From a virus: 64,000 bases of DNA. The position numbers were made by a program, and so were the translations under genes. Positions 7,249 through 62,416 of the stretch are shown in pieces. Position 1 is the stretch's first letter; every line of letters starts with the position of its first letter. Under the pieces are notes generated by a model, which saw only the letters and a list, made by a program, of their open reading frames with translations, was not told the DNA's origin and did no database searches. The DNA lies in the IMG/VR virus record IMGVR_UViG_3300031111_000011, positions 1 through 64,000 of that record, one strand, 5' to 3'.

Positions 7249-8028
7249 ATGGAAAAACTCAGAGAGGCAATGTCCAAGGTGCTACGAGACGTAGGCGAAG
7301 GGTACGAACTGTTCTTGCTGGTTACTTACCACAGTCAGACCACTGGGGTCACCATCTTGGACAAGGATCTGACCATCCTCTGGTACAACCCATATGTCCA
7401 AAAATACTTTGGCCTTGAGTTCATTAACACTAATTACCTTGACAGGTTTCCTGGGGAGCAGAGAGAGGCCACGAAGAGTCAACTGCGGCAAGCAGAAAGG
7501 ACCGGGGTCAGTGATCCTGCGCTCCTTCAGCCCCCAGGTGTTGAGATGGTTGTCGAAAGGCGCATCTGGGCAGTCTCAGGCGGGTACATCGCCGCATCCT
7601 ACGACCACACCGTACTCACTCAAGCAGAACAACGCACCAAGGATGTACAGACCACACTGACCCTCTTAGCTGAGGCGCGGGAGGGGCTGATACGGGATGC
7701 CCAACTCAAGACACTGGATATGATGGAAACTCACTGCAAGGCAATCTGCGGCAAATATGGGAACCGAAGCCCGTATGAGTGCAAGTCGAGAAAGAAAGTG
7801 CTGGCTGAGATCCTGGCAGGTAGGCCCAGGCTCCAGACCACACTCACTGACACTGAACTGGAGGTGGCTCGGCTCTACCAAGCGGGTCATCGGAGAAAGG
7901 AGGTTGCCGAGATCCTCGATGTGTCTGAGCATACGGTAAAAAATCATAGTACCTCCATCAGAAAAAAGCTTGGCATGAACAACCCAAGTGTGTCCCTTAT
8001 TGAGTATCTTCAACGGTTTACCTTATAG
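7249..8028 (+). CDS. LuxR/FixJ-family transcriptional regulator with N-terminal PAS-like sensor domain (259 aa)
   Basis: C-terminal HTH TDTELEVARLYQAGHRRKEVAEILDVSEHTVKNHSTSIRKKLGM matches the LuxR-type HTH signature; the N-terminal ~120 aa have PAS-like composition. Confidence 0.7.
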   Translation: MEKLREAMSKVLRDVGEGYELFLLVTYHSQTTGVTILDKDLTILWYNPYVQKYFGLEFINTNYLDRFPGEQREATKSQLRQAERTGVSDPALLQPPGVEMVVERRIWAVSGGYIAASYDHTVLTQAEQRTKDVQTTLTLLAEAREGLIRDAQLKTLDMMETHCKAICGKYGNRSPYECKSRKKVLAEILAGRPRLQTTLTDTELEVARLYQAGHRRKEVAEILDVSEHTVKNHSTSIRKKLGMNNPSVSLIEYLQRFTL

Positions 8029-8865: not shown

Positions 8866-8898
8866 TGAGGAGGGGTTGGCACCTCTCCTCTTTTTTTC
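8866..8898 (+). terminator. rho-independent terminator (gaggagg...cctctcctc + T7)
   Basis: Stem followed by ttttttt; immediately precedes palindrome copy 2. Confidence 0.6.
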
Positions 8899-10231: not shown

Positions 10232-10465
10232 ATGAAATATCCCACACTGGAAGAAGTGAATACGGCGAGTCACAGGGAGCTGGCCCGATGGTATCGGTTT
10301 CTACCCTCCCCCGGACTGAATGCCATCAATGATGGTCTTCCCAGGAAGGACTGGGAGAAAGTCGTGGAGCAGGAATGTGCCATCATGAACACCATCATAG
10401 AGCGATTCTCCGCAATGGGGGGTTTCAACCCCGCCCTGAGCAAGAAGATCGGGTGGAAGGCATGA
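10232..10465 (+). CDS. hypothetical protein (77 aa)
   Basis: SD taaggaggataaATG. Confidence 0.5.
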   Translation: MKYPTLEEVNTASHRELARWYRFLPSPGLNAINDGLPRKDWEKVVEQECAIMNTIIERFSAMGGFNPALSKKIGWKA

Positions 10466-10719
10466 GAATTCAACTCACTCCAGAGGAGATCGACGGACTG
10501 AAGACGTGGTTGGCGTACCCAAAGAAGGTCCGCAGAGGGGAATGTCCGTTTGTCTTTGTGCCGGGGAATACCTGTGCTCGTATCTGCCGCATGGTTTTTC
10601 CGGGTGATGAACTCGGCCTGTGCCCCTGTGACCAAGAGGGCGCAGACCATAAAAAAATCTATGAAGTTGCACGAGAAGGTGCGGAAAGGGGGTACATCAC
10701 AATTGGACTCGGACATTAA
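10462..10719 (+). CDS. hypothetical Cys-containing protein (85 aa)
   Basis: ATGA overlap; internal Met of listed ORF 10375-10719. Confidence 0.45.
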   Translation: MRIQLTPEEIDGLKTWLAYPKKVRRGECPFVFVPGNTCARICRMVFPGDELGLCPCDQEGADHKKIYEVAREGAERGYITIGLGH

Positions 10720-11713
10720 TGGCACGGTGATTTTTCTGACACCGTTTGGATCGCATCTCTACGGTACATCCACTCCGGAGTCGGATCTGGACTACAAGGG
10801 GGTGTATCTGCCGACAAAGGAGCAGATCCTGATCGGGAAGATCCCCAAGACTATCACTCGAAACACCAAGGTCGGAGAGGGGAAGAACAGCAAGGAAGAC
10901 ATTGACTTTCAACTTTATTCTCTCCCCTACTTTGTGGACCTTCTGGTCCAGGGTGAAACGTCGGCTATCGACATGATCCATGTCCGAAAGGATCAAGCTC
11001 TCGTGTGGACGGATGAGTGGGAACGGCTGCACCGCAACCGTCACATGAGCTACAGCAGAAATATGAAGGCGTTCGTCGGGTATGCCCGTAAACAAGCGGC
11101 CAAGTACGGGGTCAAAGGCAGTCGCCTTGCAGCCATGCAAGACGTCCTTGAATACCTGATGGCCTATATCCAGAAGGAGATTCTGTATGATTATGAACGT
11201 GATACCAAACTTCGAGACGTATGGGATGATCTTCCTGATGGTGATCATATTCATCGTCTTGATCCGACTGATCGAACTCCTTATCGCATGTATCAGGTCT
11301 GTGGGAAGAAGTTTATGGAGACAGTCAAGATTCGAGAAGTCTACGCTTCGATCAAGAAGTCCTATGATCAATACGGTCACCGGGCAGAACTGGCGAAGAA
11401 GAATCAGGGCATCGACTGGAAGGCAGTATCCCACGCACTCCGTGCGGCTTACCAACTGGTGGAAATCTTTGGGTCCGGGGATCTGGCCTTTCCACTCGCT
11501 GATGCGGCTTATCTGCGGAAAGTGAAGGAAGGCTCACTGGACTGGACCTCCTGGGTTCAACCCCACCTGGAGGAAATGATGGGCCGGGTGGAGTGTATGG
11601 CCTCTCTCTCCAAATTCCCAGAACAAGTGGACCGGACCTTCTGGAACAATCTGACTATCGACATCATGGAAACGTGGTTACTTACTCAAACTGTAGGAGG
11701 TGAATTATGCTGA
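10661..11713 (+). CDS. nucleotidyltransferase (Pol-beta/minimal NTase fold) of unknown specificity (~350 aa)
   Basis: TPFGSHLYGTSTPESDLDYKG fits hG[GS]-x9-13-D-x-[DE]; a third acidic motif EDIDFQLY lies ~45 aa downstream; start uncertain (ATG 10661 overlaps upstream gene). Confidence 0.55.
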   Translation: MKLHEKVRKGGTSQLDSDINGTVIFLTPFGSHLYGTSTPESDLDYKGVYLPTKEQILIGKIPKTITRNTKVGEGKNSKEDIDFQLYSLPYFVDLLVQGETSAIDMIHVRKDQALVWTDEWERLHRNRHMSYSRNMKAFVGYARKQAAKYGVKGSRLAAMQDVLEYLMAYIQKEILYDYERDTKLRDVWDDLPDGDHIHRLDPTDRTPYRMYQVCGKKFMETVKIREVYASIKKSYDQYGHRAELAKKNQGIDWKAVSHALRAAYQLVEIFGSGDLAFPLADAAYLRKVKEGSLDWTSWVQPHLEEMMGRVECMASLSKFPEQVDRTFWNNLTIDIMETWLLTQTVGGELC

Positions 11714-12774
11714 AGAACGTGACTATTTGTGGCTACAACGTGCGTGAAATCAATCTGGTACTGGCCGAGGACAACACCCCGCTTTACTCTGTGGGAGATC
11801 TCATGATGCCCATGGGGTTCACCCGCTACTCTGCGGCATCCAGGGTCAGGTCCATCCCGGAGCTTACCCACACCAAAATCAAGCTGCCCTCCACGGCCCA
11901 GGCGATTCATGTGGTGACCCCGGAGGGTGTCCTGGCCTTAGCCGAGACGGGGAAGTGTCGTACCAATTTCGTTTCGGAATTTCGATCCTATTGCCAGAAG
12001 GAGGGCATCCCCCTGCCCGATCCGGAAGTCACGCCGGATGGTCCCGCCGTCTTCAACGGCATCGAGATCACCTTCGAGGACGATGTCCTGGTGAGCCTGA
12101 CGGACATGTGGAAAGCGGACGGATCTCGTCAGGCCAAGAAACCCGTCCACTTCCTGAAAACGGATGGGACTGTGGAGTTTATCGAACAAATTCGGGAGGA
12201 AATAAAAGGTAAGGAATCTTACCTTTTACGATCTATCCCTGGTCGAGGTGGTGGAACCTACGCTCACTGGAAGATCGCTGTCCAGTATGCGGCTTTCCTC
12301 AGCCCCAAGTTCGCAAGCTGGATGGCCGATCTGGTCCGGGTCCGGTTCATCGAGATCAACGATCCGGAGCAGGGTGCCAAGCTGTACCGGGAACGTGCGA
12401 TCACCGACCGGATGAACAAGACCGGCTGCTCCCGTGAACAGGCAATCCACTATTTCGAGAAGAGCCTCGTCGCACGAAAAACGGTTTCGTCTCAGATCTG
12501 CCGGTTCGTTCCCAATGCGAGGAAACATATCGCTGAGATCACGGATCATCTCAATATGGGCTTTATCGGAATGAGAGCCCAGGACATCAAGAAAACCCGT
12601 GGGGTTTCCCAGACCCGTGAATCGTTTACCCTTGCGGAGCAGATGGGGGTGGCGTTTCTGGAACAGTGCATGATCGATCATATCGATCAAGTGAGATACG
12701 AAGCTGACCCGTACCACCTGCGGGATATGGCGTACTCCAACGGGCAAAAATGCCGAGCCATGATGGTGCGCTAA
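11707..12774 (+). CDS. Bro-N + KilA-N domain protein (antirepressor-like, 355 aa)
   Basis: N-terminal Bro-N-like LYSVGDLMMPMGF; central KilA-N-like GTYAHWKIAVQYAAFLSPKFASWMADL; SD ggaggtgaattATG. Confidence 0.6.
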   Translation: MLKNVTICGYNVREINLVLAEDNTPLYSVGDLMMPMGFTRYSAASRVRSIPELTHTKIKLPSTAQAIHVVTPEGVLALAETGKCRTNFVSEFRSYCQKEGIPLPDPEVTPDGPAVFNGIEITFEDDVLVSLTDMWKADGSRQAKKPVHFLKTDGTVEFIEQIREEIKGKESYLLRSIPGRGGGTYAHWKIAVQYAAFLSPKFASWMADLVRVRFIEINDPEQGAKLYRERAITDRMNKTGCSREQAIHYFEKSLVARKTVSSQICRFVPNARKHIAEITDHLNMGFIGMRAQDIKKTRGVSQTRESFTLAEQMGVAFLEQCMIDHIDQVRYEADPYHLRDMAYSNGQKCRAMMVR

Positions 12775-12794: not shown

Positions 12795-12824
12795 TTGACA
12801 ACTTACCAGATGTGATTATATTAT
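12795..12824 (+). promoter_or_regulatory. sigma70-like promoter TTGACA-N17/18-TATTAT overlapped by inverted repeat CCAGAT...ATCTGG
   Basis: Consensus -35; AT-rich -10 flanked by a 6-bp inverted repeat (operator-like). Confidence 0.45.
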
Positions 12825-12854
12825 ATCTGGTTTCGGGAAATAGTAATTAACTAA

Positions 12855-12881
12855 CAGACCCTTGAGGGTCTGTGTTTTTTT
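12855..12881 (+). terminator. rho-independent terminator (cagaccc ttga gggtctg + T7)
   Basis: Perfect 7-bp stem plus tgtttttttt; lies ~35 nt downstream of the promoter. Confidence 0.65.
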
Positions 12882-19669: not shown

Positions 19670-20539
19670 ATGAAACGACTTTTTTTGATCGCTCTGACTA
19701 TCCTGATGGCCTTTTCCCTCTCCGCTTGCGGAGTTTCCCACGTCGATCCCAACGAGGAACTCGCCCTGGTGAGCAAACTGGGTGACGGCAAGGGCTCCAT
19801 CCAGGTCTACGGTACCGGGTGGCAGTTTTACAACCCGCTGAAGTGGACCGGCAAGACCTTCTCCCTGGCCCGAACCACCATCAAGTGGGTGACTGAAGAC
19901 CCCAACACCGGTGCTTTCACCTTCAACAGCAGCAAGGGGCTCAAGTTCCAAGTGGATGTCGGGGCTACTGTCCAGATGCGAAAGGGTGCGTCTGCCGAGG
20001 CGTACCGACTCTACAAGAAGGACATCAACGCTGTCCTGAACTCCGACTTCGGGAACAACCTGCGGGAGGCGTTCAACGACGCTGGTTCCCAACGCGCCAC
20101 AGAGGAAATCTACGGCGACAAGAAAGCCTTCGTGGATGCTGTCGAGGAAATCATGCAGAAGCGATTCTCCGTCCTCTTCCAGGACGTGGACATTTTCCTG
20201 CTCAATGACATGATTCTCCCGCCTTCGGTCAAGGCCGGTATCGAGCGTAAGGAAGCCGCCCGTCAGAAAGCCGAGCAGCGAGAGAACGAGATCGCTGAGG
20301 CCACCGCTGACCGGCTGAAGAAACAACAGGCCACCGATGCTGTTGCCTACGAGATCGAGCGCACTGCCCAGGCCAAGGCCAAGGAGATCACCTCCATTGC
20401 CGAAGCTGAGGCGAAAGCCATCATGCTGAAACGGGCTCAGATCACCCCTGAATACGTCGAGTACGTCAAGGTCAACGGATGGGACGGCAAGCTTCCCCAG
20501 GTCACGGGAGGCGCTGGCACCCTGATCGACTTGCGGTAA
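19670..20539 (+). CDS. SPFH/band-7 (HflK/HflC/prohibitin-like) lipoprotein (289 aa)
   Basis: Lipobox LSAC after a signal peptide; coiled-coil region QRENEIAEA...AKAKEITSIAEAEAKAI typical of SPFH proteins. Confidence 0.7.
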   Translation: MKRLFLIALTILMAFSLSACGVSHVDPNEELALVSKLGDGKGSIQVYGTGWQFYNPLKWTGKTFSLARTTIKWVTEDPNTGAFTFNSSKGLKFQVDVGATVQMRKGASAEAYRLYKKDINAVLNSDFGNNLREAFNDAGSQRATEEIYGDKKAFVDAVEEIMQKRFSVLFQDVDIFLLNDMILPPSVKAGIERKEAARQKAEQRENEIAEATADRLKKQQATDAVAYEIERTAQAKAKEITSIAEAEAKAIMLKRAQITPEYVEYVKVNGWDGKLPQVTGGAGTLIDLR

Positions 20540-22916: not shown

Positions 22917-24823
22917 TGTTCCCAACGCTGTACCAGGAGTTCATCTACAAGCGAACCTATTCTCGGTGGCTGGATGAACTCCTTCGGAGAGAGGAGTGGG
23001 AGGACACGGTAGCTCGGTACCAAGAGTTCTTCCTGGACGGTAAACTCAAGGATATTCCCGATGCAGCTAAGGTGGAATTCCTTGAGGCTACCGGTGCAAT
23101 CTACAACCTCGAAGTTATGGGGTCCATGCGGACCCTGTGGACTGCTGGTCCTGCCTTGGCCCGTGAAAACATCTGCGGGTACAACTGTGCTTACAAGGCA
23201 GTCAATACTGTGCGAAGCTTCGCTGAGATCCTGTACATCCTGCTCTGTGGTACTGGGGTTGGGTACAGTGTGGAGCGGCAGGAGATCAACCAACTCCCTG
23301 AAGTCCCGCCTTACTTCTCCACTCCAGAACGCACCGTTGTGTTCTCTGATTCGAAGAAGGGATGGGCTGAGGGATTTCTCAAGTGGATGAACGCCCTCTA
23401 TAAGGGTGAGTTGCTTGAGTACGACCTCTCCCGAATCCGTCCTGCTGGATCACGGCTGAAGACCTTCGGGGGCAGAGCCAGTGGACCTGAGCCCCTCCAG
23501 GAACTTCTGGAATTCGCCAAACGCATTTTTCTCAGTGCCAAGGGACGGAAGCTAACGAGCCTGGAATGTTACGACATCTGCTGCAAGATCGCTGAGGTGG
23601 TTGTCGTAGGAGGTGTGAGACGGTCTGCCTGTATTTGCCTCACCAACCTGTCCGATGACCGGATGGCTAAGGCCAAGACGGGTGAGTTCTGGCTTCTCAA
23701 CCCCCAGAGATCCCTGTCCAACAATTCGGTGGCGTACACCGAGAAGCCTCAAGTGCGGAAGTTCATGAGTGAGTGGCTCAAGCTCATGGAGTCCCAGACC
23801 GGAGAGCGGGGGATCTTCAATCGAAGAGCAGCAGAGGTTGCTGTGCAGCGCACCCTACGCCGAAAGGGAGGGTTCGCTTGGGGCTGCAATCCTTGCGGGG
23901 AAGTGATTCTCCGTCCGTCTGGTCAGTTCTGCAACCTGAGCGAGGCGATCATTCGGGCTGAGGACACTCTTGAAACAATTCTCAAGAAGGTCCGATACGC
24001 AACCATCCTGGGTTGTGTCCAGGCCACACTCACTGCGTTCAAATTTCTGGGGAGTTCATGGACAGTGAACACCGAGGAGGAGCGACTCCTTGGGGTGTCT
24101 CTCACAGGTCTTATGGACCATCCAATTCTTAGTGAGGTGTCGGACAAGGCCAAGGCATGGCTTGTCAAGATGAAAGGAGAGGCCATTGAAACAGCGGAAA
24201 GGTGGTCGGAGATTCTTGGAATTCCGATGCCGAAAGCGATTACGACCGTCAAGCCGTCTGGAACAGTCAGTCAACTGGTTGACTCTGCATCCGGACTTCA
24301 CCCTCGCTTTGCTCCTTTCTATGTACGCCGGGTTCGTGTCTCTGCGACAGATCCTGTAGCGAAGATGCTTGTTGACCAGGGAGTTCCCTGTAGCCCTGAA
24401 GTCGGACAGGACACGGTAAGTCCATCCACTTGGGTCTTTGAGTTCCCGGTTAAGTCTCCGGACAACGCGAAGGTAGCCAGCGCAATCACTGCTCTGGAGC
24501 AGTTGGAGTACTGGCTGATGCTCAAACAGCATTGGTGTGAACACAACCCCTCTTGCACGGTCTATGTGGGAGAGGATGAGTGGTTGGAAGTGGGTGCATG
24601 GGTGTGGAAACACTGGGATGAGATTTGCGGTCTTACCTTCATGCCTCGCAGTGACGCAGTTTACAAACTTGCTCCTTATGAGGAGGTAGATGCGAGGACT
24701 TACTACGATCTTGTTGACGCTCTTCCTGACATCAATTTTGGTGAATTGTCTCGATACGAAACCGAAGACCTCACTGAAGGGAGCAGAGAATTCGCCTGTC
24801 AGGGAGGAGCTTGCGAACTATGA
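22916..24823 (+). CDS. nrdJ: ribonucleotide reductase, class II (adenosylcobalamin-dependent NrdJ-like, 635 aa)
   Basis: N-terminal FIYKRTYSRW; active-site GCNPCGEVIL (NPCGE); size typical of NrdJ. Confidence 0.8.
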   Translation: MFPTLYQEFIYKRTYSRWLDELLRREEWEDTVARYQEFFLDGKLKDIPDAAKVEFLEATGAIYNLEVMGSMRTLWTAGPALARENICGYNCAYKAVNTVRSFAEILYILLCGTGVGYSVERQEINQLPEVPPYFSTPERTVVFSDSKKGWAEGFLKWMNALYKGELLEYDLSRIRPAGSRLKTFGGRASGPEPLQELLEFAKRIFLSAKGRKLTSLECYDICCKIAEVVVVGGVRRSACICLTNLSDDRMAKAKTGEFWLLNPQRSLSNNSVAYTEKPQVRKFMSEWLKLMESQTGERGIFNRRAAEVAVQRTLRRKGGFAWGCNPCGEVILRPSGQFCNLSEAIIRAEDTLETILKKVRYATILGCVQATLTAFKFLGSSWTVNTEEERLLGVSLTGLMDHPILSEVSDKAKAWLVKMKGEAIETAERWSEILGIPMPKAITTVKPSGTVSQLVDSASGLHPRFAPFYVRRVRVSATDPVAKMLVDQGVPCSPEVGQDTVSPSTWVFEFPVKSPDNAKVASAITALEQLEYWLMLKQHWCEHNPSCTVYVGEDEWLEVGAWVWKHWDEICGLTFMPRSDAVYKLAPYEEVDARTYYDLVDALPDINFGELSRYETEDLTEGSREFACQGGACEL

Positions 24824-24966
24824 AAATGATTCTGGAGTACGTCGCAGGGATTTTTATCTCACTTGGGGCCATCATCGGAGCGGGTGCGGTGATGGTTATT
24901 GCAACTTTGGCCGCAACGTGGCCCTTTTGGGTTGCTCTTGCCTGTATCGTTTACATCTTCTTTTAG
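24820..24966 (+). CDS. small membrane protein (48 aa, 2 TM)
   Basis: ATGA overlap with RNR stop; wholly hydrophobic. Confidence 0.4.
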   Translation: MKMILEYVAGIFISLGAIIGAGAVMVIATLAATWPFWVALACIVYIFF

Positions 24967-24975
24967 GAGGCCAAC

Positions 24976-25080
24976 ATGACAATCGAACGCTTTATGGAGT
25001 GGGTCATGGTGGGGATCATCGTTGTTGCGGGGATCTTCATCACTCTCGGTATCGACTCACTCTCCAACATCCTGAGTTAG
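24976..25080 (+). CDS. small membrane protein (34 aa, 1 TM)
   Basis: SD ttttaggaggccaacATG. Confidence 0.4.
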   Translation: MTIERFMEWVMVGIIVVAGIFITLGIDSLSNILS

Positions 25081-25089
25081 GAGGTGGCC

Positions 25090-25329
25090 TTGAATCAGAA
25101 GGGATTCACTTTGATCGAACTGATGATTGTGGTTGCGATCATTGGGATCTTGGGCGCTGTGGCCGTCCCCAATCTCGTTTCTTACAAGCAGAAAGCGGAG
25201 TCGGCAGCACTGGAAATCAAGATCAACCGAGAGAACATGAAAAAGGCGGGGGAGGATCTGAGGGACACCTTCAAGTCCCTCCTCCCCCGGAAGACTTACT
25301 CGAACGAAGTTATTGTGACAAGGGAGTAA
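25090..25329 (+). CDS. type IV pilin-like (prepilin-type N-terminal methylation motif) mini-protein (79 aa, TTG start)
   Basis: MNQKG|[22 protein letters not shown] matches the prepilin leader + N-methyl-Phe + hydrophobic helix signature; SD aggagg 5 nt upstream of TTG. Confidence 0.55.
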
Positions 25330-25331
25330 CA

Positions 25332-25862
25332 TTGGCAATTGACAAAGACCAGATGCGAGATCTGGTTCGGGATGTCCTGATGTACCTGGACCCTGAGATC
25401 CCCTTCTCTGCTGATGCAGTGGAGTTGATCATGCTCACTATGGCTCAGGAATCCCACATGGGAACATACATTAAGCAGCTTGGTACAGGACCGGCCAAGG
25501 GTGTGGTTCAGATGGAACCCTCTACTGAGGAAGACATCTGGGACAATTACCTGCGGTACAAGAAGGATCTGGCAACTAAGGTACGTGCGCTCTATGCAGC
25601 CATGCAAATCGGGCGTGACTTTGAGCTTGATCCTCTTCGACACAACCTCGCCTACCAGATCGCCATGGCGAGGGTTCACTATCGGAGAGTGAGTGACCCT
25701 CTTCCCAAGGTCCATTTCCAACTTCAGTTTGAGGCTGATGGGATCATCACAGAGAACAGTGTGAAGCGACTCGCTGAGTATTGGAAGGAGCATTACAACA
25801 CACCACTTGGAAAGGGAAAACCTGAAGAGGCGGTGTACAACTATGTGAGGTTCGCTGTATGA
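25332..25862 (+). CDS. putative lytic transglycosylase/lysozyme-like protein (176 aa, TTG start)
   Basis: MAQESHMG (catalytic E-S), GVVQM and AYQIAMA resemble SLT-domain motifs; SD aagggag + TTG. Confidence 0.45.
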   Translation: MAIDKDQMRDLVRDVLMYLDPEIPFSADAVELIMLTMAQESHMGTYIKQLGTGPAKGVVQMEPSTEEDIWDNYLRYKKDLATKVRALYAAMQIGRDFELDPLRHNLAYQIAMARVHYRRVSDPLPKVHFQLQFEADGIITENSVKRLAEYWKEHYNTPLGKGKPEEAVYNYVRFAV

Positions 25863-26383
25863 GGAACTGCGATAACTGTCGGTACTTAGAGGTTTCTCTA
25901 CGGGATGAGCCGTGCTTCGGGTGTGTAGGGTACAGTAACTGGAAACCCGAACTCCCTCCCAGTGGAGAGGGACAGAAAGGACGAGAAGTAATCGTGAATA
26001 ACTGTGTTCTCCCCGACAGCGGGAAACGAGAAGGGTTCGATAGTGGATCGATTCGAGATAGCCGAGAAGGGAAAGGCCGGTACGATCTGATCAGCCCCTT
26101 CGCTCTGAAGCGGATCGCAGTCCACTACGAAAATGGTGCCAAGAAGTACGCTGACCGGAACTGGGAGAAAGGCCAACCGATCATGCGGTACTTCGACAGT
26201 GCCGTGCGTCACCTCTTCACATGGGTCACAGACAAACTCTGTGGCCGTCCCCATGCGGAGGATCACCTCGCTGCTGCGGCCTGGAACGTCATGGCAATGC
26301 TGGACCACGAGGAACGTATCGCTATTGGCCGACTCCCTACCGGGATCGATGATAGCCCTGGTCCTGCATGGAAGCCCGAATAA
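25859..26383 (+). CDS. hypothetical protein with N-terminal zinc ribbon (174 aa)
   Basis: CDNC...CFGC ribbon; segment RIAVHYENGAKKYADRNWEKG recalls phage dATP/dGTP pyrophosphohydrolase-associated domains (unverified). Confidence 0.5.
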   Translation: MRNCDNCRYLEVSLRDEPCFGCVGYSNWKPELPPSGEGQKGREVIVNNCVLPDSGKREGFDSGSIRDSREGKGRYDLISPFALKRIAVHYENGAKKYADRNWEKGQPIMRYFDSAVRHLFTWVTDKLCGRPHAEDHLAAAAWNVMAMLDHEERIAIGRLPTGIDDSPGPAWKPE

Positions 26384-26422: not shown

Positions 26423-26438
26423 TTCTCAATATTGAAAA
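26423..26438. promoter_or_regulatory. palindromic element TTCTCA-atat-TGAAAA (family copy 6)
   Basis: Directly upstream of SD aaaaggagg of rtcB. Confidence 0.45.
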
Positions 26439-26446
26439 GGAGGACT

Positions 26447-27661
26447 ATGGAAAAGGTCATGTTTTCATCAGGCAGAATCCCTGCCTACTCATGGTTACCA
26501 GTGGACAAACTGGAGGAAGGCGCTCTGGAACAGATCCAGGCTTGCACTGCCCACCCCAAGGCTTACCACCACATGGCTGTGATGCCCGACTGTCACCAGG
26601 GATATGGGATGCCCATTGGCGGTGTGGTTGCCCTGGACGGCGCAATCAGCCCCAACATGGTGGGGGTGGACATCGGCTGTGGGATGAGTGTGGTCCGCAC
26701 CAACGCCAAATTCGTTCACACTTATCAAATCAAGGAAATCCTGAACCGACTCAAGACCATGGTTCCTGTCGGTGAGGGGAAGTTTCGATCTGACCCCGTC
26801 TCCTGGCCCAAGTGGGTGGAGTATCTGGACAAGGTCAAGGAGCGTCCTGACTGGATGAAGGGCTCTAACTGGCATCGGTTCAAGTGCAGCATGGGAACTC
26901 TGGGAGGTGGGAACCACTTTCTGGAGCTTCAGCGGGATGAAGAGGGTTACCTCTACATGATGCTCCACTCCGGTTCCCGTGGCCTGGGGTACGCCATTGC
27001 CAAGTACTACAACGAACTGGCCCAGACCTACTGCGTCAACCTAGACATCCCCAACAAAGATCTGGCTTACCTGCCGACCGATCACAAGTGGGGGCAAGCC
27101 TACATCCGGGACATGAACTTCGCCCTGGCTTTTGCCAAGGAAAACCGCAGGGTCATGATGGATGCCTTCAAATTCGCTTTCTTCCACGTTCTTGGATCTC
27201 CTGTCCGGGAGGACATTGATGTTGTCGATGAGATCGACATCCACCACAACTACGCGGCATTGGAGCACCACTTCGGCAAGGATCTGTGGGTTCACCGGAA
27301 AGGCGCGACTTCGGCCCAGTCTGGACAACTGGGGATCATTCCCGGTTCCATGGGAACCCACTCCTACGTCGTCGCTGGTAAGGGGAACCCGGACTCCTTC
27401 AAGTCCTGCTCCCACGGTGCTGGTCGAGTGAAGGGTCGGATGGCCGCTACTCGTGAACTCGACCGGATGGAGCAGGAGAGGAAGATGGACGGCATTGTCT
27501 TTGACGGGTTCAAAACCCTGAAGAAGGGTAAGCTGAAAGGTGCGTATGACCTGGGCGAAGCCCCTGATGCCTACAAAAATATTGATACTGTCATGTGGCA
27601 CCAGGGGGATCTGGTGGACGTGGTAGTAAAACTCAAACCGATAGGAGTCTTGAAAGGGTGA
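26447..27661 (+). CDS. rtcB: RNA-splicing ligase RtcB (3'-phosphate/5'-OH RNA ligase, 404 aa)
   Basis: RtcB signatures HMAVMPDCHQGYG, GGNHFLELQ, MLHSGSRGLG, CSHGAGR; ATG 4 nt after SD. Confidence 0.9.
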   Translation: MEKVMFSSGRIPAYSWLPVDKLEEGALEQIQACTAHPKAYHHMAVMPDCHQGYGMPIGGVVALDGAISPNMVGVDIGCGMSVVRTNAKFVHTYQIKEILNRLKTMVPVGEGKFRSDPVSWPKWVEYLDKVKERPDWMKGSNWHRFKCSMGTLGGGNHFLELQRDEEGYLYMMLHSGSRGLGYAIAKYYNELAQTYCVNLDIPNKDLAYLPTDHKWGQAYIRDMNFALAFAKENRRVMMDAFKFAFFHVLGSPVREDIDVVDEIDIHHNYAALEHHFGKDLWVHRKGATSAQSGQLGIIPGSMGTHSYVVAGKGNPDSFKSCSHGAGRVKGRMAATRELDRMEQERKMDGIVFDGFKTLKKGKLKGAYDLGEAPDAYKNIDTVMWHQGDLVDVVVKLKPIGVLKG

Positions 27662-28638: not shown

Positions 28639-28937
28639 AGCTGATCTGCTGTCCCTCTTGTTGGGACGTGTTCAAACTCGCCAAGGAAGAGCGCACCTGC
28701 TCATGCGGACGGTGCTCAGGCAGGTACCTCAACAACACCTACGCCGAGACAAATGGTGAGGGAATCAACCTCGCCATTGGCAACGGGTCACTCCTGCAAG
28801 CGGCTTACAACCTCGACCACTTTGCGAAGGACGCAGAGCGTCACGAGTTCATCGACCACAACCCCGTGATCTGTTGGGTCCGTCCTCCAGAAGGACCGGG
28901 AAACCCACACACCACTGTACGAAAGGAGGAATCATGA
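28635..28937 (+). CDS. Cys-rich protein (100 aa)
   Basis: ATGA overlap; CCPSC...CSCGRC cluster. Confidence 0.5.
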   Translation: MKLICCPSCWDVFKLAKEERTCSCGRCSGRYLNNTYAETNGEGINLAIGNGSLLQAAYNLDHFAKDAERHEFIDHNPVICWVRPPEGPGNPHTTVRKEES

Positions 28938-30322
28938 ACCCCATTCTGAATACTGACTCTTACAAAGCGAGTCATTACAGGCAGTACCCTGAAGATGTGG
29001 CCTGGGTGAGTTCCTATATCGAAGCACGGGGTGGAAAATACCCTGAGACGGTTTTCTTCGGGCTGCAAGCCTTCCTGAAGGAGTACCTAAGCAAACCCTT
29101 CACCCAGGCTCATATCAATGAGGCAGAGGACTTCTGGGAGGCTCACGGCCTCCCGTTCAATCGGGGAGGGTGGGAATACATCCTCGCCAGATACCGGGGC
29201 TATATGCCTATTTTGATCCAGGCGGTGGATGAGGGCTCGGTGGTTCCCACTGGCAATGTTCTTGTTCAGATTATTAACACTGACCCTGAAGTTCCCTGGA
29301 TCACCAGCTACGTGGAAACCGCTCTGCTCCGGGCAATCTGGTACCCCACCACGGTGGCTACCCTTTCCCACTTCTGCAAGCGAGATCTCTACAACTACTG
29401 GAAGGAGTCGAGTGACGCTCCTATTGAGTCCCTGGACTTCAAACTTCACGACTTCGGTGCTCGTGGGGTGAGTTCCCTGGAATCTGCTGGACTGGGTGGG
29501 ATGGCCCACCTCGTCAACTTCAAAGGCACCGATACGGTGGAAGGGGTTCTCGCTGCAAGACGGTACTACAACGAGCCCATGGCAGGATACTCAATCCCTG
29601 CTGCCGAGCACTCCACCATCTGCTCCTGGGGCGGTCCAGGACGAGAAATGGATGCCTTCCGAAACATGATCAGCCAGTTCGGTGGAGACTATCCACTGAT
29701 CGCTGTGGTCAGCGATTCGTACAATATCTGGGACGCAGTGGATAACAAATGGCCTTACCTGGATACCGAGATCAGTGCCAGTGGGTCCACCATCGTGGTC
29801 CGTCCGGACAGTGGAGATCCCCACATCGTACCTGTCGAGGTGATCAGCCGTCTCATGCAGAAGTTCGGATTCACGGTCAATAGCAAGGGCTACCACGTCC
29901 TTCCGGATCGAATTCGAGTTATCCAAGGCGACGGGATTACCGGCGATAGCCTGAATCGCATCCTGTTCAACCTCCGGATGAAGCGTCTCAGCATCGACAA
30001 TATTGCCTTTGGTATGGGTGGTGGGCTGCTCCAGCAGATCAACCGGGATACCTGCAAGTTCGCCATGAAGTGCAGTGCGGTTGCTGGCAAGAGCAACCAA
30101 TGGCAACCGGTGTTCAAGCAACCTGTGGATCAGCCTGACAAGGTGAGCAAAAAGGGTCGGCTGAACCTGATCCGGAACTCGGATGGTGAGTTCGAGACGG
30201 TCCCGGAGAAGTGGGAAGAGTCGCGGGGGGTTATGCCCATCCGGAGCATTAACGGGCTCCGCTACCACACCACAACTTTCGAGGAAATCCGGGGACGGGT
30301 CCAGGAGCACCTCATTGCTTAG
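28934..30322 (+). CDS. nadV: nicotinamide phosphoribosyltransferase (NAMPT/NadV, 462 aa)
   Basis: MNPILNTDSYKASHYRQYPE N-terminus and overall length typical of NAMPT; SD aaaggaggaatcATG. Confidence 0.85.
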   Translation: MNPILNTDSYKASHYRQYPEDVAWVSSYIEARGGKYPETVFFGLQAFLKEYLSKPFTQAHINEAEDFWEAHGLPFNRGGWEYILARYRGYMPILIQAVDEGSVVPTGNVLVQIINTDPEVPWITSYVETALLRAIWYPTTVATLSHFCKRDLYNYWKESSDAPIESLDFKLHDFGARGVSSLESAGLGGMAHLVNFKGTDTVEGVLAARRYYNEPMAGYSIPAAEHSTICSWGGPGREMDAFRNMISQFGGDYPLIAVVSDSYNIWDAVDNKWPYLDTEISASGSTIVVRPDSGDPHIVPVEVISRLMQKFGFTVNSKGYHVLPDRIRVIQGDGITGDSLNRILFNLRMKRLSIDNIAFGMGGGLLQQINRDTCKFAMKCSAVAGKSNQWQPVFKQPVDQPDKVSKKGRLNLIRNSDGEFETVPEKWEESRGVMPIRSINGLRYHTTTFEEIRGRVQEHLIA

Positions 30323-30821
30323 AGTCGGAGTCTTTGTTGGCAGATGCCAACCTTTCCACAAGGGGCATGAGCAGATCATCCGTCAGATGCTCCATGAACG
30401 TGGAACAGAGCGGTGTGTCATTCTCTTGGGGAGCATCAATGCTCCCCTTTCCGCTAAGAACCCTTTCCCCTACCCCACTCGTTATCAGTGGGTGAAGAAC
30501 ACCTTCCAGTATGTCCATGTCTTGGGCATTCCGGACTTCCCCGACAATGATGACTACTGGCTCTTCCATATCATGCAAGTTCTCAAGCTCCCTTACGTGG
30601 AGAGTGTTGACCCTTATTTCTACGTAGGCAGTGAGAGAGACGGTCGGGTCTACCACGAGCGTGGATTCACAACCATGATCGTTCCGCGCAGTAAGCAGTA
30701 CAGTGGGACTGAGATCCGAAGACGGCTTGCAGCCGGTGAGGACTTCAGTGAATTGGTGAGCGACCCTGAGTACGCTCAGTCAGTGAAGAGTGTGTGGGAC
30801 ACTGTGAAACATGCAATTTGA
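30315..30821 (+). CDS. nicotinamide/nicotinate mononucleotide adenylyltransferase (NMNAT, NadM-like, 168 aa, TTG start)
   Basis: Nucleotidyltransferase (H/T)xGH motif VGVFVGRCQPFHKGH; size fits archaeal/phage-type NMNAT; only in-frame start preserving the motif is TTG 30315 overlapping the nadV stop. Confidence 0.7.
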   Translation: MLRVGVFVGRCQPFHKGHEQIIRQMLHERGTERCVILLGSINAPLSAKNPFPYPTRYQWVKNTFQYVHVLGIPDFPDNDDYWLFHIMQVLKLPYVESVDPYFYVGSERDGRVYHERGFTTMIVPRSKQYSGTEIRRRLAAGEDFSELVSDPEYAQSVKSVWDTVKHAI

Positions 30822-32087: not shown

Positions 32088-32251
32088 GCGAGAGTGAGTT
32101 GGACATTCTGATGAAAAGGTTAGAGCCCTTTGCAAAAGGACTCTTTTCGGGACAGGTCTGTGAGTGGCCCCAACTTAAGCCTCTTTTGGCAGATCTGTAC
32201 GGATATCTGGAAAGAGAAAAACGCAGGAAGGAGTTTGATGGAACGACGTGA
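32084..32251 (+). CDS. hypothetical protein (55 aa)
   Basis: ATGA overlap. Confidence 0.4.
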   Translation: MSESELDILMKRLEPFAKGLFSGQVCEWPQLKPLLADLYGYLEREKRRKEFDGTT

Positions 32252-33398
32252 AACTTTCCCCACCATATACACCTTATCCAGGGTGGGGAAGCCACAGAGG
32301 TGGCGTGTAGAAGTCAACGAGACTCCCGTCAACGAGTATGCCTTACTGGTAGTTCAGTACGGGCAAGTTGACGGCAAACTCACCCAGAGCGTCAAGAAGA
32401 TCAAAGGCAAGAACATTGGCAAAGCCAATGAGACAACCCCTTACGAACAAGCCCTGAAGGAAGCCAAGGCGAAGCACCTCAAGCAACTCACTCAGGGTGG
32501 ATACTTCGATCACATTCCCACCAAGCAGGAGATGGATGACCTCCTCCTGCCGATGCTGGCTCAACCCTTCGAGAAGCGTAAGAAACATATTGAGTACCCT
32601 GCCATCGTTCAGCCCAAGCTGAACGGAGTGAGGTGTATGGTTCGACGGGTCAGTGAGTCGAGGGTGATCTTCAGATCCCGCCTGGGGAAAAGCTATGACA
32701 AGGTAACGAAACATCTGGTCCCTCACCTTCTCCAGTTGCTTTCTGTTGGGGAAACCTGGGACGGGGAACTCTACGTCCACGGGTGGACCTTCCAGCGCAT
32801 CGTCCGTGCTGTCAAGAAGTTCAGAGAGGACGACACTCCAAAGCTTGAGTTCTGGGTCTACGACAAGGTTAGTGACGAAGATTACGCCGACAGATACAAC
32901 TACCTTTGGAAAAAGATCCTTGAGCACGGAGTACCCGATCTCAGTCCTGTCAAGTGGACTAACAGCCAGATTGTGATCAGGGAAGCTGAGATAAGACAGT
33001 ACCACGACTTCTACGTGCAGCACGGCTTTGAGGGGATCATCATCCGGAACCGGAAGGGTGGTTATCAGACCGTTTACCGGTCCAACAACCTCCAGAAGTA
33101 CAAGGAGTTCATCGACCATGAGTTCATCATTATCGATGGGCGGTCCTCCGAGGGGAACCAGGAAGGGTGTGTGGTATTCACTGTAGAGGGTGTTGCCATT
33201 GACGCCAAAAAGAAAGAGCACCCGGCTGGTGTGGTTCGGTTTGAGGTTGTGCCTCGTGGCACCTTCGAGCAGAGACGCAAATACCTCACCGATATCGATG
33301 ACCTGATTGGCGAGGAGATTACAGTACGTTACCAGGAACTCTCTGAAGATGGTGTGCCTATCTTTCCGGTGGGTGTAGCCATCAGGGACTATGAGTGA
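32238..33398 (+). CDS. ATP-dependent DNA ligase (T7 gp1.3-like, 386 aa)
   Basis: Motif I KLNGVRC (KxDG variant), nucleotidyltransferase motifs FEGIIIRN and EGCVVF; SD aggaaggagtttgATG. Confidence 0.8.
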   Translation: MERRETFPTIYTLSRVGKPQRWRVEVNETPVNEYALLVVQYGQVDGKLTQSVKKIKGKNIGKANETTPYEQALKEAKAKHLKQLTQGGYFDHIPTKQEMDDLLLPMLAQPFEKRKKHIEYPAIVQPKLNGVRCMVRRVSESRVIFRSRLGKSYDKVTKHLVPHLLQLLSVGETWDGELYVHGWTFQRIVRAVKKFREDDTPKLEFWVYDKVSDEDYADRYNYLWKKILEHGVPDLSPVKWTNSQIVIREAEIRQYHDFYVQHGFEGIIIRNRKGGYQTVYRSNNLQKYKEFIDHEFIIIDGRSSEGNQEGCVVFTVEGVAIDAKKKEHPAGVVRFEVVPRGTFEQRRKYLTDIDDLIGEEITVRYQELSEDGVPIFPVGVAIRDYE

Positions 33399-34420: not shown

Positions 34421-34648
34421 TTAGTGGATGGGGTCACCAAGGAACACGTAGAAGGGCAAACCACAATGCTTACACCACGCATCCATGCCCCACGAACCAT
34501 CACCAAGTTCCCGGTACTCACCGACTTCAGTGATCATCTCAGAGCACTGGATGCACTCGATCTCGATGGATGCAACGGACATGTCGTCGGACATGTCCAC
34601 AGTCCCAATTTCCTGGCCGACCACATTAAGAGCTTTGTATTTTGTCAT
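34421..34648 (-). CDS. small Cys-containing protein coupled to integrase (75 aa)
   Basis: ATG overlaps the integrase stop (ATGA); CIQC...CKHC. Confidence 0.45.
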   Translation of the reverse strand: MTKYKALNVVGQEIGTVDMSDDMSVASIEIECIQCSEMITEVGEYRELGDGSWGMDAWCKHCGLPFYVFLGDPIH

Positions 34649-35940
34649 TAGCCCACCTTTCCGAAGAGGGGAATCACCTGGGCTGTCTTGGGTGCGTGGA
34701 CCCCGTCATCCTCCCAAGGATGGAACTGAGCAGCCCACTCATCGATGAGCCTCTTCCCCTCCTCCTTGAGGGTCTTCTCAAAGTGGATGTAGTCCTGGGT
34801 GATCAGTGCTCCCATCTGGATTGGGTCACCCTTCTTCTGGATCGTATGAGAGAGCATCACACTCACCAGACGTTCGTTCCCAGACACCTCATAGAGTTTG
34901 GTAGCCAGAGTGTGTCGGAACTTGTGGAAGGATTCACTCTCCTTCCTACTCTTGCCCTTCTGGACCCCAAACAACAGTTCCCTGGCCTGATTGATTGGTC
35001 GTCGAGAGTGCCATTTGAACCGGAACACCTTACCAGTGTATTTGGCCGATCCGTGTTTTTTGGACTGTACCAATTTAATAGCGTCCTTGACGATCTCAGG
35101 CATGTAGAACCATGCCCACTTCCCGTCATTCGGACCCTTTCGCAGGAACTTGAGGGTTCCTTCCTTCCAGTCGATCCGGTCCCACCACACTCCCACATCC
35201 TTCTTATGGTTCCCGTTCCCAGTGAGTTCATGGACTCGGAACCCCATGAAGAAGCCCAGGCAGACCTGGGCGTAAGCTTCGGCCCATCGGAGTCCATCCA
35301 CCCCCTCAGTTTGTCTGTACAGGAACCGTAGCAGCTTGGCTACTTCCTCATCCGTGAACGTCCGGACATCCTCCATCAATTCCTCCTCAGTAGGTTCGGT
35401 GCTGACAGGTTTGACCAGATCAGCCGGGTTAGCCCCGGCGTACAGACCCTCCCCAAGGGCAAACTTGTACAGGTTCCGGATCGTGCTGATGAAGGCGTTG
35501 ATCGTGGTCGGTGCGTAGTGCCCCTCCTTGACCAAAGCCCTCTGAAACACCCGGAGCTTGCCTGGGGTGATTGCCGCCAGGGGCTCATGTGCGAACCATT
35601 TCTTAAACCGCTGGTTGTACTTGGATTGGTAGTTCGGCACAGCCGATGCTCCCACCTTTTCCATGTGCTCCAGCCACAACTTGTACGCCCGACTGAAAGT
35701 GATCGCTTCGAGCTTGTCCGGGATGGCCTGTCCCAGTTTGAGCTTCTGAAGCATCTTATTCCGCTCCTCCTCAGCGATCTGAAGGGAGAATCCGTTGTCC
35801 TCCCTGCCCACCTGGAACCGCTTGTTCTTACCATCCACCTTCACCATGAAGCTGAAGGTCTTGCCATCCCTGCCGTGGTAGGTGTAACAGCCCCGGTGCC
35901 GCTTGCTTGCTACGTGTGTCCCGATTTTCCCCTTTGCCAT
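34648..35940 (-). CDS. int: tyrosine-type site-specific integrase (431 aa from SD-supported start)
   Basis: C-terminal catalytic motifs R...HKFRHTLAT...LSHT...Y; start set at MAKGK with SD aaaggaggtagaATG (listed ORF extends 23 codons further upstream without an SD). Confidence 0.85.
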   Translation of the reverse strand: MAKGKIGTHVASKRHRGCYTYHGRDGKTFSFMVKVDGKNKRFQVGREDNGFSLQIAEEERNKMLQKLKLGQAIPDKLEAITFSRAYKLWLEHMEKVGASAVPNYQSKYNQRFKKWFAHEPLAAITPGKLRVFQRALVKEGHYAPTTINAFISTIRNLYKFALGEGLYAGANPADLVKPVSTEPTEEELMEDVRTFTDEEVAKLLRFLYRQTEGVDGLRWAEAYAQVCLGFFMGFRVHELTGNGNHKKDVGVWWDRIDWKEGTLKFLRKGPNDGKWAWFYMPEIVKDAIKLVQSKKHGSAKYTGKVFRFKWHSRRPINQARELLFGVQKGKSRKESESFHKFRHTLATKLYEVSGNERLVSVMLSHTIQKKGDPIQMGALITQDYIHFEKTLKEEGKRLIDEWAAQFHPWEDDGVHAPKTAQVIPLFGKVG

Positions 35941-36107
35941 TCTACCTCCTTTCGTGGGGTAACAAACCCCGGTTTGATTGTGACTTTCTTGTGACTTTTG
36001 GCCCGTCATGACTTACTGCAATAATTCAATTTTTCAAGTCTGGGCAAATATAACAACTCCGCAAACCTTTGTCAATAGCGAACTTCTCGTGTGTTATCAG
36101 TACCTTC

Positions 36108-36587: not shown

Positions 36588-36997
36588 TACACCCCCTTCT
36601 TGAGCGCCATGAAGTCAGCGATCTTGCGGTAACCGAAAGCAGATCCTACGGCGATGCCGAGCATCCATTGGTACCACTGTGGGCAGGTAGCCAGGGCAGC
36701 AAACCCGACTGTGACCCACCCTGCTCCGGTTGGAAAGAAACAGAGGATGGCAGGAATCGAAAGGACAATGGTAAACCATTCATCCTTCCACCCGCTCTGG
36801 TTGATGGAGGTGTTCTCCCAGGCGATGTCCCCCTGCTGTTGGGTGAGCATCTTATTAATGGTAGCTTCGGTTTTCGCCTCAGTCACCTTGACCTTGGATT
36901 CAACCTCCACCTCTTTGATACGTTGCCGATGTCGGAACCAATCTGTGACGGGGGCCATCAGACCCCCGACCAGATCACCAAGGATCTTACCGACCAC
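36587..36997 (-). CDS. putative holin/membrane protein (136 aa, C-terminal TM helices)
   Basis: Hydrophobic segments FTIVLSIPAILCFF, WVTVGFAALATC, MLGIAVGSAFGY; last of the structural cluster. Confidence 0.5.
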   Translation of the reverse strand: MVGKILGDLVGGLMAPVTDWFRHRQRIKEVEVESKVKVTEAKTEATINKMLTQQQGDIAWENTSINQSGWKDEWFTIVLSIPAILCFFPTGAGWVTVGFAALATCPQWYQWMLGIAVGSAFGYRKIADFMALKKGV

Positions 36998-62076: not shown

Positions 62077-62151
62077 TGGAAGGGGCAGAAGGAATCGAAC
62101 CTTCCTGCACAGGTTCAAAGCCTGTTGGTTAAGCCGCTCACCCATACCCCT
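62077..62151 (-). tRNA. tRNA-Gln(TTG)
   Basis: 7-bp acceptor AGGGGTA/TGCCCCT, T-arm GGTTCGATTCC, anticodon loop CTTTGAA, CCA encoded. Confidence 0.7.
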
Positions 62152-62157
62152 ATAAGC

Positions 62158-62232
62158 TGGTCAGGGATGCTGGAATCGAACCAGCCGCCCCAAGCTTCCA
62201 AAGCCCAGGAGACTCCTTGCCGTTATCCCTGA
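62158..62232 (-). tRNA. tRNA-like gene, anticodon uncertain (possibly Pro-TGG); irregular stems
   Basis: Good acceptor TCAGGGA/TCCCTGA and T-arm GCTGG-TTCGATT-CCAGC, but D and anticodon arms pair only with several G-U wobbles; possible pseudo-tRNA. Confidence 0.4.
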
Positions 62233-62243
62233 TGATTTGCAGA

Positions 62244-62318
62244 TGGCTCCAGAACCTGGACTCGAACCAGGATTTCAACGGTTAACAGCCGCGCGTGTTA
62301 CCTTGACACTATTCTGGA
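62244..62318 (-). tRNA. tRNA-Asn(GTT)
   Basis: Acceptor TCCAGAA/TTCTGGA, D-arm GTGT-CAAGGTA-ACAC, anticodon loop CTGTTAA, T-arm CCTGG-TTCGAGT-CCAGG, CCA. Confidence 0.7.
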
Positions 62319-62329
62319 GTGAGGAGAGA

Positions 62330-62406
62330 TGGTTGGAGCGAGAGGATTCGAACCCCCACTTAACGGGTTAAAAGCCCGTTGTGCTAACCGTTGACACTAC
62401 GCTCCA
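62330..62406 (-). tRNA. tRNA-Lys(TTT)
   Basis: Acceptor TGGAGCG/CGCTCCA, anticodon arm ACGGG-CTTTTAA-CCCGT, T-arm GGGGG-TTCGAAT-CCTCT. Confidence 0.75.
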
Positions 62407-62416
62407 ACAAAAAAGA

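Follow-up and report, generated by a model that had tools for sequence, protein, structure and literature searches.

A predicted RlaP-family nucleotidyltransferase of the T4 NrdC.11 clade in an uncultivated phage encoding RtcB and a tRNA cluster

The DNA analyzed here, called the window throughout, comprises positions 1 to 64,000 of the IMG/VR virus record IMGVR_UViG_3300031111_000011 (64,000 nucleotides, nt) and derives from an uncultivated, integrase-encoding phage of ~67 kb. On its plus strand lies a gene that an earlier reading of the sequence, the original prediction, had described as a stand-alone nucleotidyltransferase (NTase) of ~350 amino acids (aa) and of unknown specificity. Judged by sequence, the gene at 10661-11713 is real and belongs to the RlaP family, within the clade of T4 NrdC.11 (phrog_388). 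We favor, with moderate confidence, the reading that its product is an RNA 3'-end NTase that would restore trimmed RNAs, probably tRNAs, and act alongside RtcB and the phage tRNAs against ribotoxins of the host.

10661-11713, plus strand: coding sequence of the RlaP-family (T4 NrdC.11-type) NTase, 350 aa from ATG 10661, stop codon 11711-11713

Family assignment

The predicted plus-strand open reading frame (ORF) of ~350 aa ending at 11713 was recovered at exactly 350 aa when read from ATG 10661. In Pfam the protein matches PF10127 (RlaP, "RNA repair pathway DNA polymerase beta family"), scoring 41.4 bits where the cut-off is 23 (E 1.7e-10). This match is confined to the N-terminal 125 positions, while phrog_388 ("nucleotidyltransferase") covers the full length (residues 18-340, E 1.1e-87). 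BLASTP aligned the protein with T4 NrdC.11 at 41% identity (E 2e-79). By tblastn, 1,576 phage records, mostly of T4-like phages, contain a homologue; none reaches 60% identity, and the best stand at 43-44%. In metagenomes, 3,235 proteins were matched at E <= 1e-5, with 57% identity for the nearest, and PF10127 is carried by all 120 of the homologues listed. Fold matches in BFVD were "nucleotidyltransferases" of phages and giant viruses, baculovirus HE65 and an "RNA repair pathway protein". The window RlaP is thus a fairly divergent addition to a known and widespread family.

The family owes its name to its linkage with RNA ligases in operons, and its members were predicted to replace nucleotides that RNA ends have lost, ahead of ligation (Burroughs & Aravind 2016, as cited in later papers). 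Across jumbo phages, the occurrence of RlaP is reported to parallel the occurrence of RNA ligases (Iyer et al. 2021, PMC7824862). Two Pseudomonas members encoded between rtcB and rtcA, PfRlaP and PaRlaP, were described in a preprint of December 2025 (PMC12776372). Both add one or two nucleoside monophosphates, or deoxynucleoside monophosphates, to an RNA 3'-OH, are inactive on DNA and protein and prefer Mn2+ (PMC12776372). They act preferentially on the 5' half of a cleaved tRNA and partly rescue the aminoacylation of a tRNA short of one nucleotide (PMC12776372). The same work places NrdC.11 in PF10127 cluster 5, apart from the bacterial cluster 1a (PMC12776372). The description "of unknown specificity" is therefore outdated: the family has a name, its function has been predicted since 2016 and its bacterial members have been partly characterized biochemically.

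Active site and domain architecture

Four features of the protein carry the comparison with characterized and predicted relatives.

10745-10792, plus strand: NTase signature F29-G30-S31-HLYGTSTPES-D42-L43-D44 (S41 before D42), GS-x10-DxD, from the sequence and alignments
10898-10906, plus strand: D80-I-D82, with a predicted strand at 81-87 (strand from the structure model; D82 conserved)
11108-11410, plus strand: clade-specific insertion of ~100 aa, residues ~150-250 (approximate), in the C-terminal helical domain, unaligned by hhalign against the canonical RlaP L148
11402-11443, plus strand: invariant motif N-x-G-I-D-W-K-A-x-S-H-A-x-R, N248-R261, from alignment A2

The original prediction had noted a minimal NTase signature of the form GS-x9-DxD and a downstream acidic motif. 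The GS and DxD elements are present, with ten rather than nine residues between them, and the acidic motif was found as D80-I-D82 together with D104. Conservation was counted in a 76-sequence homologue alignment (A2). G30, D42, D44 and D104 are present in 76/76 sequences and S31 in 74/76, and position 82 holds Asp in 75 sequences and Glu in the remaining one. The GS...DxD residues align with the same residues of a canonical RlaP and of T4 NrdC.11, and D42 and D44 represent the two metal-binding aspartates of the Pol-beta-type signature.

Since the Pfam model spans only the N-terminal half of the protein, a canonical RlaP was sought as a bridge to the family. The reference is a 261-aa ORF near a phage RtcB (L148:15078-15860), which covers the whole Pfam RlaP model. 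When A2 was aligned to it with hhalign, a probability of 95% and an E value of 2.8e-8 were obtained over 228 columns, spanning positions 20-251 of 261 and both domains. In this alignment D42, D44 and D82 match canonical acidic residues, and D104, despite being invariant in A2, matches a Leu. D104 was consequently rejected as the third catalytic residue, the predicted triad is D42/D44/D82, and D82 is the probable third catalytic carboxylate. The check for a conserved third Asp, which had been proposed at the outset, was thus positive at D82. As the catalytic residues are conserved, a pseudo-enzyme or a wrong reading frame, either of which would have undermined the original prediction, is excluded, and the window RlaP is predicted to be catalytically intact.

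The AlphaFold2 (AF2) model is confident, with a predicted local distance difference test score of 91.6 and a predicted template modeling score of 0.83. In it, the N-terminal part forms an NTase sheet, and the C-terminal domain is large and helical and includes a small beta element. On the alignment and the model, this predicted two-domain plan, an N-terminal NTase followed by a C-terminal helical domain, is common to the canonical RlaP. Within the C-terminal domain, the ~100-aa insertion contains invariant KYGxKGxR and YGxRA motifs and, in the AF2 model, a small beta-hairpin element at 197-219. In the motif N248-R261, residues N248, D252, K254, S257, H258 and R261 are each present in 76/76 sequences, and hhalign aligned this motif with a degenerate 'fgydcknaahlir' in the canonical RlaP.

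T4 NrdC.11 shares with the window protein the motifs FGSHLYGT-x-TP-x-SD-x-D, IDxxLYSL, QAxKYGxKGSR and GIDWKAxSHAxR, as well as the same ~100-aa insertion relative to canonical RlaP, and it is likewise the product of a non-structural gene. With PfRlaP and PaRlaP, which belong to rtcB-rlaP-rtcA operons and cluster 1a, the window protein has in common the Pfam family, an NTase core with three acidic residues and an RtcB encoded in the same genome. The two-domain plan is a further likeness to these bacterial enzymes, judged through the canonical phage RlaP (L148) and not through PfRlaP itself. In contrast, similarity to bacterial RlaP is at the profile level only, and the window protein adds the ~100-aa insertion with its own invariant motifs. 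The window gene also differs from the bacterial operons in lying outside an RtcB operon and in having no RtcA.

Comparison with other nucleotidyltransferase families

The window protein gave no match to SMODS, CD-NTase, PolyA_pol, CCA or further NTase families of Pfam, to the PADLOC defense models or to the NCBIfam models. Sequence searches of the PDB with the protein and the family profile returned nothing relevant. Comparison of the model with solved structures, suggested earlier for the cGAS/DncV, CCA-adding and AbiEii families, revealed no resemblance to them. None of cGAS, DncV, OAS or CCA enzymes was among the best fold matches, and structures of poly(A) polymerases and terminal uridylyltransferases reached Foldseek probabilities of just 0.1-0.4. 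Membership of the CCA-adding/poly(A) polymerase group was therefore rejected, given the missing Pfam match and these weak probabilities. The best fold matches in the PDB were kanamycin nucleotidyltransferase, AadA/AAD(9) and LinB, in a set from which the PfRlaP structure is absent.

These matches raise the question of whether the protein might be a small-molecule NTase of the aminoglycoside/lincosamide type (ANT/KNTase). Its sequence family is PF10127 and no ANT family, such an activity has no obvious rationale in a phage, and the absence of PfRlaP from the set means that the true nearest structure is missing from the comparison. Kanamycin NTase/ANT(4') and the minimal NTases of MNT-HEPN systems, which are the best solved-structure matches, show 6-13% identity and low TM-scores. 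We regard a small-molecule NTase as extremely improbable.

A signaling enzyme or decoy, CD-NTase-like or Hailong HalB-like, would make a nucleotide or oligonucleotide signal that triggers or blunts host defense. The CD-NTase-like signaling enzyme had been among the roles put forward in the original prediction, and the searches above, negative for SMODS/CD-NTase in Pfam and for PADLOC, do not bear it out. The structural likeness is generic to proteins composed of a minimal NTase and a helical domain (TM 0.23-0.28, 10-16% identity), and kanamycin NTase and 3c18 give better scores. With no cGAS, DncV or OAS among the best structure matches and no effector or receptor gene nearby, we consider a signaling role very improbable. 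In terms of membership, a CD-NTase of the cGAS/DncV type (CBASS cyclase) was rejected for want of a sequence match, a fold match and an adjacent effector gene. An MNT-HEPN/AbiEii toxin-antitoxin NTase was likewise rejected, as there is no HEPN partner gene and no match to a defense model (PADLOC); moreover, the invariant residues of the window family lack Rx4-6H.

Genomic setting in the window

No sequenced phage is closely related: a megablast comparison of 12 kb of the window with phage genomes gave no match, and the PolA encoded in the window is <=35% identical to that of any isolate. In comparison with the T4-like phages that carry most of the known homologues, the window phage is unrelated to T4, small (~67 kb) and integrase-encoding, and its RlaP is only 41-44% identical to any protein of an isolated phage. 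Replication and nucleotide-metabolism genes occupy the plus strand; integrase (34648-36009), tail, internal-virion, portal, capsid and terminase genes are on the minus strand. The virion gene block extends over 46-62 kb on the minus strand, and the RlaP gene lies outside it, between primase and helicase. Its immediate block consists of primase, three small ORFs, RlaP and a KilA-N gene, with terminator-like sites at 8867-8890 and 12854-12873 (consensus matches only).

11707-12774, plus strand: KilA-N domain protein downstream of RlaP (Pfam KilA-N 2.5e-14), overlapping the NTase stop by 7 nt
26432-27661, plus strand: RtcB 3'-phosphate RNA ligase (Pfam RtcB 7e-105; phrog_1075), 14.7 kb downstream of RlaP
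62077-63735, minus strand: 12 tRNA genes found by ARAGORN, namely Gln, Asn, Lys (UUU), Ile, Val, Arg x2 (including Arg-ACG), Thr, Gly x2, Ala and Asp

The window RtcB retains the SCSHGAGR nucleophile motif and all other invariant residues and is the only recognizable RNA ligase in the window. Homologues of T4 PseT and Rnl1 were searched for in the window and not found, and a search of the window for an HD phosphohydrolase homologue was equally negative. T4, in contrast, has PseT, Rnl1 and Rnl2 elsewhere in its genome, whereas the window phage has RtcB and no PseT or Rnl1 match. The original description of the gene as stand-alone holds for its surroundings, since HEPN, effector and RNA-repair genes are all absent within ~5 kb; it does not hold for the window as a whole, in which RtcB is encoded on the same strand. 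A tRNA/RNA-modifying NTase linked to RtcB, one of the roles first suggested, is supported by the PF10127 assignment, the T4 NrdC.11 group and the presence of RtcB. An anti-defense enzyme, another of these roles, gains looser support as a putative role. Lys-UUU, Asn, Asp, Gln and Arg-ACG tRNAs are typical targets of anticodon nucleases, and the 12-tRNA cluster may in this way be tied to defense against RNA damage.

Directly upstream of RtcB, a plus-strand gene at 25859-26383 encodes a protein with a MazZ-like dATP/dGTP diphosphohydrolase domain (PF18909). A homologue (L011:9043-9399) occurs in an array of RlaP, HD, HAD, MazZ-like, x and RtcB genes. The other 79 phage RtcB loci yielded no MazZ-like homologue, and the link to RtcB may therefore be coincidental. 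A Z-genome pathway was considered and rejected: there is no PurZ-like partner, the adjacent ORF at 24690-25862 has no Pfam family and the scanned ORFs gave no adenylosuccinate-synthetase match. This adjacent ORF (plus strand, 390 aa) shares 134 nt with the 3' end of the class II ribonucleotide reductase gene; because only its C-terminal half matches phrog_3108 (function not annotated), its start is probably further downstream.

The location between primase and helicase invites a different explanation, in which the protein is a replication accessory acting like a terminal transferase on primers or DNA ends. In the related loci L085 and L086 the order is a primase-like gene, RlaP, KilA-N (L085) or Bro-N/ANT (L086), helicase and PolA, and the order primase-like, RlaP, helicase, PolA is thus kept in the window and in both relatives. 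dATP can moreover serve as a donor for PfRlaP (PMC12776372). However, PfRlaP extends no DNA, either alone or in hybrids (PMC12776372), other phages place the gene with RNA ligases, kinases or HD genes and not with replication genes, and the T4 copy sits in the non-essential nrdC region. We therefore judge a replication role decidedly improbable. What this synteny does establish is that the position of RlaP in the replication block is conserved and its immediate downstream neighbor variable; the KilA-N gene at 11707-12774 is such a variable neighbor and no functional partner of RlaP.

Neighborhoods of viral homologues

Gene neighborhoods were counted in 80 viral loci holding an RlaP homologue, with a limit of 10 kb for the distance to a ligase. 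RtcB was present in 12/80 loci, in most of them on the strand of RlaP and 1-4 kb downstream, and an Rnl1-like ligase in 8/80, in arrays of PseT-like, Rnl1 and RlaP genes. A PseT-like kinase/phosphatase was found in 13/80 loci. Taken together, an RNA ligase of the RtcB or Rnl1 type was nearby in 20/80 loci, and in 10/43 when counting loci with full flanks. The RNA-repair-linked loci display several distinct gene orders. These linkage frequencies are raw counts, and their weight derives from the varied, independent gene orders and from the agreement with published analyses. T4 Rnl2, used as a query, gave no match in the 80 RlaP loci. A scan of viral contigs with a single RtcB protein yielded one weak locus, and in an alignment-based RtcB scan the contig of the syntenic relative L004/L085 was not among the matches listed.

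In seven loci (L055, L058, L070, L073, L074, L077 and L080) an ATP-dependent ligase homologous to the window DNA ligase at 32130-33398 (plus strand) lies exactly between RlaP and RtcB (in L074 at 10911-12038). The seven loci share many other genes and therefore probably represent one lineage. With the window protein annotated as an ordinary DNA ligase, this ligase was rejected as an RNA-repair partner.

A protein of ~175 aa with an HD domain (Pfam HD; motif EYHPEGD..H) is encoded immediately next to RlaP in 21/80 loci. Its match among the PHROGs is to the HD portion of tRNA nucleotidyltransferases from phages (phrog_2244).

Loci with adjoining RlaP and HD genes: L003, L005, L006, L009-L011, L017, L019, L020, L024, L026, L028, L030-L032, L036, L037, L042, L045, L054, L064
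Examples of the HD gene: L006:10902-11426 and L011:8142-8675

An NTase combined with an HD domain is the layout of bacterial CCA-adding enzymes. The recurrence of the pair suggests a putative two-gene module for RNA-end repair, in which ends are healed before nucleotides are added, or which serves to repair the 3' ends of tRNAs. No description of such a recurrent RlaP-HD module with an HD protein of the CCA-enzyme type was found in the literature examined.

The second of these options leads to a rival explanation with the same chemistry at another site: RlaP would repair the 3' acceptor (CCA) ends of tRNAs that toxins of the host have trimmed or blocked, in the manner of a split CCA-repair enzyme, and no ligase would be needed. 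The adjacent HD gene, with its match to the HD portion of phrog_2244, speaks for it, as the RlaP-HD gene pair recreates the NTase plus HD layout of the bacterial enzymes. So does the lack of a nearby RNA ligase (limit 10 kb) in 60/80 homologue loci, and the conflict between a 3'-OH product and the needs of RtcB would be removed. Class II CCA-adding enzymes with an HD domain also resemble RlaP in being template-independent Pol-beta NTases that act on tRNA 3' ends. They differ from the window protein in that it shows no PolyA_pol/CCA Pfam match and no CCA fold match; the HD partner, too, was not found in the window. Furthermore, PfRlaP is less reactive when the 3' fragment end is annealed in a tRNA-like manner and more reactive with an anticodon-loop break (PMC12776372), and the low NTP specificity of RlaP suits the restoration of CCA poorly. 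Acceptor-end repair is, on balance, unlikely.

Proposed function

Returning to repair of internal breaks, we propose the following sequence of events. The window RlaP would catalyze a metal-dependent reaction through D42, D44 and D82, for which Mn2+ is favored in the characterized bacterial enzymes. By homology with PfRlaP and PaRlaP, it probably acts on RNA 3'-OH ends and adds 1-2 nt. The addition would be template-independent and directed at the 3'-OH where an RNA, most probably a tRNA, has been broken. It would replace nucleotides lost when ribotoxins or anticodon nucleases of the host cleave their target and go on to trim it (RloC-type). The repaired RNA would be resealed, presumably by the phage RtcB, and reused. 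Together with the 12 phage tRNA genes, this could serve as a counter-defense sustaining translation during infection. We infer the substrate, the cooperation with RtcB including the handover of the product, and the counter-defense role.

A number of observations weigh against this proposal. Its main weakness is end chemistry, as RlaP needs and leaves a 3'-OH and RtcB needs a 3'-phosphate or 2',3'-cyclic phosphate. The authors of PMC12776372 themselves flagged that the 3'-OH product of RlaP is no RtcB substrate. Anticodon nucleases, for their part, leave a cyclic phosphate, which RlaP cannot extend. Within the window, the RlaP gene is 14.7 kb from RtcB and outside any RNA-repair operon, and terminator- and promoter-like sites at 12795-12873 indicate that the two genes are probably in separate transcription units. 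There is also no recognizable kinase/phosphatase, Rnl-type ligase or HD phosphoesterase in the window. Among relatives, an RNA ligase lies within 10 kb in only 20/80 homologue loci, and an RlaP-like ORF occurs in only 7/80 phage RtcB loci, both as raw counts. Finally, PfRlaP and PaRlaP are the only assayed members, the function of the phage NrdC.11 clade is predicted by analogy, T4 NrdC.11 is described as 'of unknown function' in PMC12776372, and the ~100-aa insertion could alter the substrate.

The end-chemistry problem and the insertion can also be read together. NrdC.11-type RlaP might not simply duplicate the bacterial enzyme: the insertion could have altered its specificity, and an undescribed step could feed its product to RtcB. 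The invariant KYGxKGxR/YGxRA motifs of the insertion could confer a different acceptor or donor specificity. As the window encodes RtcB and no kinase/phosphatase, Rnl-type ligase or HD phosphoesterase, RlaP could feed RtcB through a step that creates a 3'-phosphate, for instance by transfer of a 3'-phosphorylated nucleotide or by addition of two nucleotides followed by trimming. If true, either step would resolve the paradox between the end chemistries of RlaP and RtcB raised in PMC12776372. We assign this possibility a low probability.

Gene model and start codon

The NTase frame is open on the plus strand from 10550 to the stop at 11713, and two start codons remain as candidates within it.

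10686-10705, plus strand: alternative start, with the Shine-Dalgarno-like sequence AAGGGGGT at 10686-10693, a 9-nt spacer and TTG 10703 (from the sequence)
10462-10719, plus strand: upstream Cys-rich ORFan of 85 aa (CPFVFVPGNTCARIC...CPC), in ATGA overlap with 10232-10465, with positive coding potential up to ~10660

In favor of ATG 10661, the N-terminus MKLHE aligns from its first residue with the first residue of P0004 (MQKHE), the closest long homologue, in which the equivalent ATG is the earliest start codon of the ORF. No Shine-Dalgarno sequence was found ahead of ATG 10661. TTG 10703 would give a 336-aa NTase and corresponds to the start of shorter homologues, e.g., P0007 (MENINGQTIL...). 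T4 NrdC.11 starts 8 aa ahead of its FGS motif, which fits TTG 10703. Coding potential was assessed with a codon-usage model trained on the confident genes of the window. The ORFan frame was favored up to ~10660 and the NTase frame clearly from ~10740; between the starts (10661-10720) the signal was ambiguous, and upstream of 10660 the NTase frame was disfavored. On account of this negative coding potential, the 379-aa database model P0001 (GTG 10574) is too long, and homologues lack the extension; a 387-aa gene model was rejected on the same two grounds. A contig encoding the exact 379-aa protein P0001 was looked for and not found.

An unusual 59-nt overlap with the upstream gene had been pointed out originally. 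It holds if ATG 10661 is the start, and shrinks to just 17 nt with TTG 10703. Since two candidate starts remain, the 59-nt overlap is plausible rather than established. The overlap partner itself is present, as the gene 10462-10719 and not as the longer ORF opening at 10375. Among 5.8 billion proteins, this ORFan matches only its identical copy in a second (Logan) assembly of this phage, where it is called as a gene. It is one of the three small ORFs between primase and RlaP, all of which are absent from the syntenic relatives L085 and L086.

Further genes of the window

Several genes without a direct connection to RlaP were recorded on the way. A nicotinamide phosphoribosyltransferase (NAMPT) gene (28874-30322) is followed by a cytidylyltransferase-like (NMNAT-type) gene (30183-30821), both on the plus strand; the two resemble a phage NAD+ salvage pair of the type that reportedly counters NAD-depleting defenses. 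A Band-7/SPFH protein (19670-20539, plus strand; Pfam 2e-17; phrog_200 'lipoprotein') is encoded amid the replication and nucleotide-metabolism genes. Upstream of the replication block, the plus-strand gene 7249-8028 encodes a regulator with PAS and LuxR/GerE-type domains, and a GerE-type gene is also present at L085:6361-6927. On the minus strand, a giant ORF of 2,235 aa (36987-43694) belongs to the virion block, and only its C-terminal 700 aa match phrog_9854 and phrog_18222 (both unannotated).

Implications

The general importance of the finding is limited, because the family has been known since 2016, occurs in more than 1,500 sequenced phages including T4, and had its bacterial chemistry described in late 2025. 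The present case adds an occurrence of the NrdC.11 type in an uncultivated phage that is small, encodes an integrase and is unrelated to T4. Least ordinary are the window context, with RtcB alone, and the RlaP-HD module of relatives, both of which touch on how RlaP is integrated into repair pathways. With RtcB and 12 tRNAs and no recognizable kinase/phosphatase, Rnl ligase or HD protein, the window thus offers a minimal natural setting for the question of how RlaP products become substrates of RtcB.

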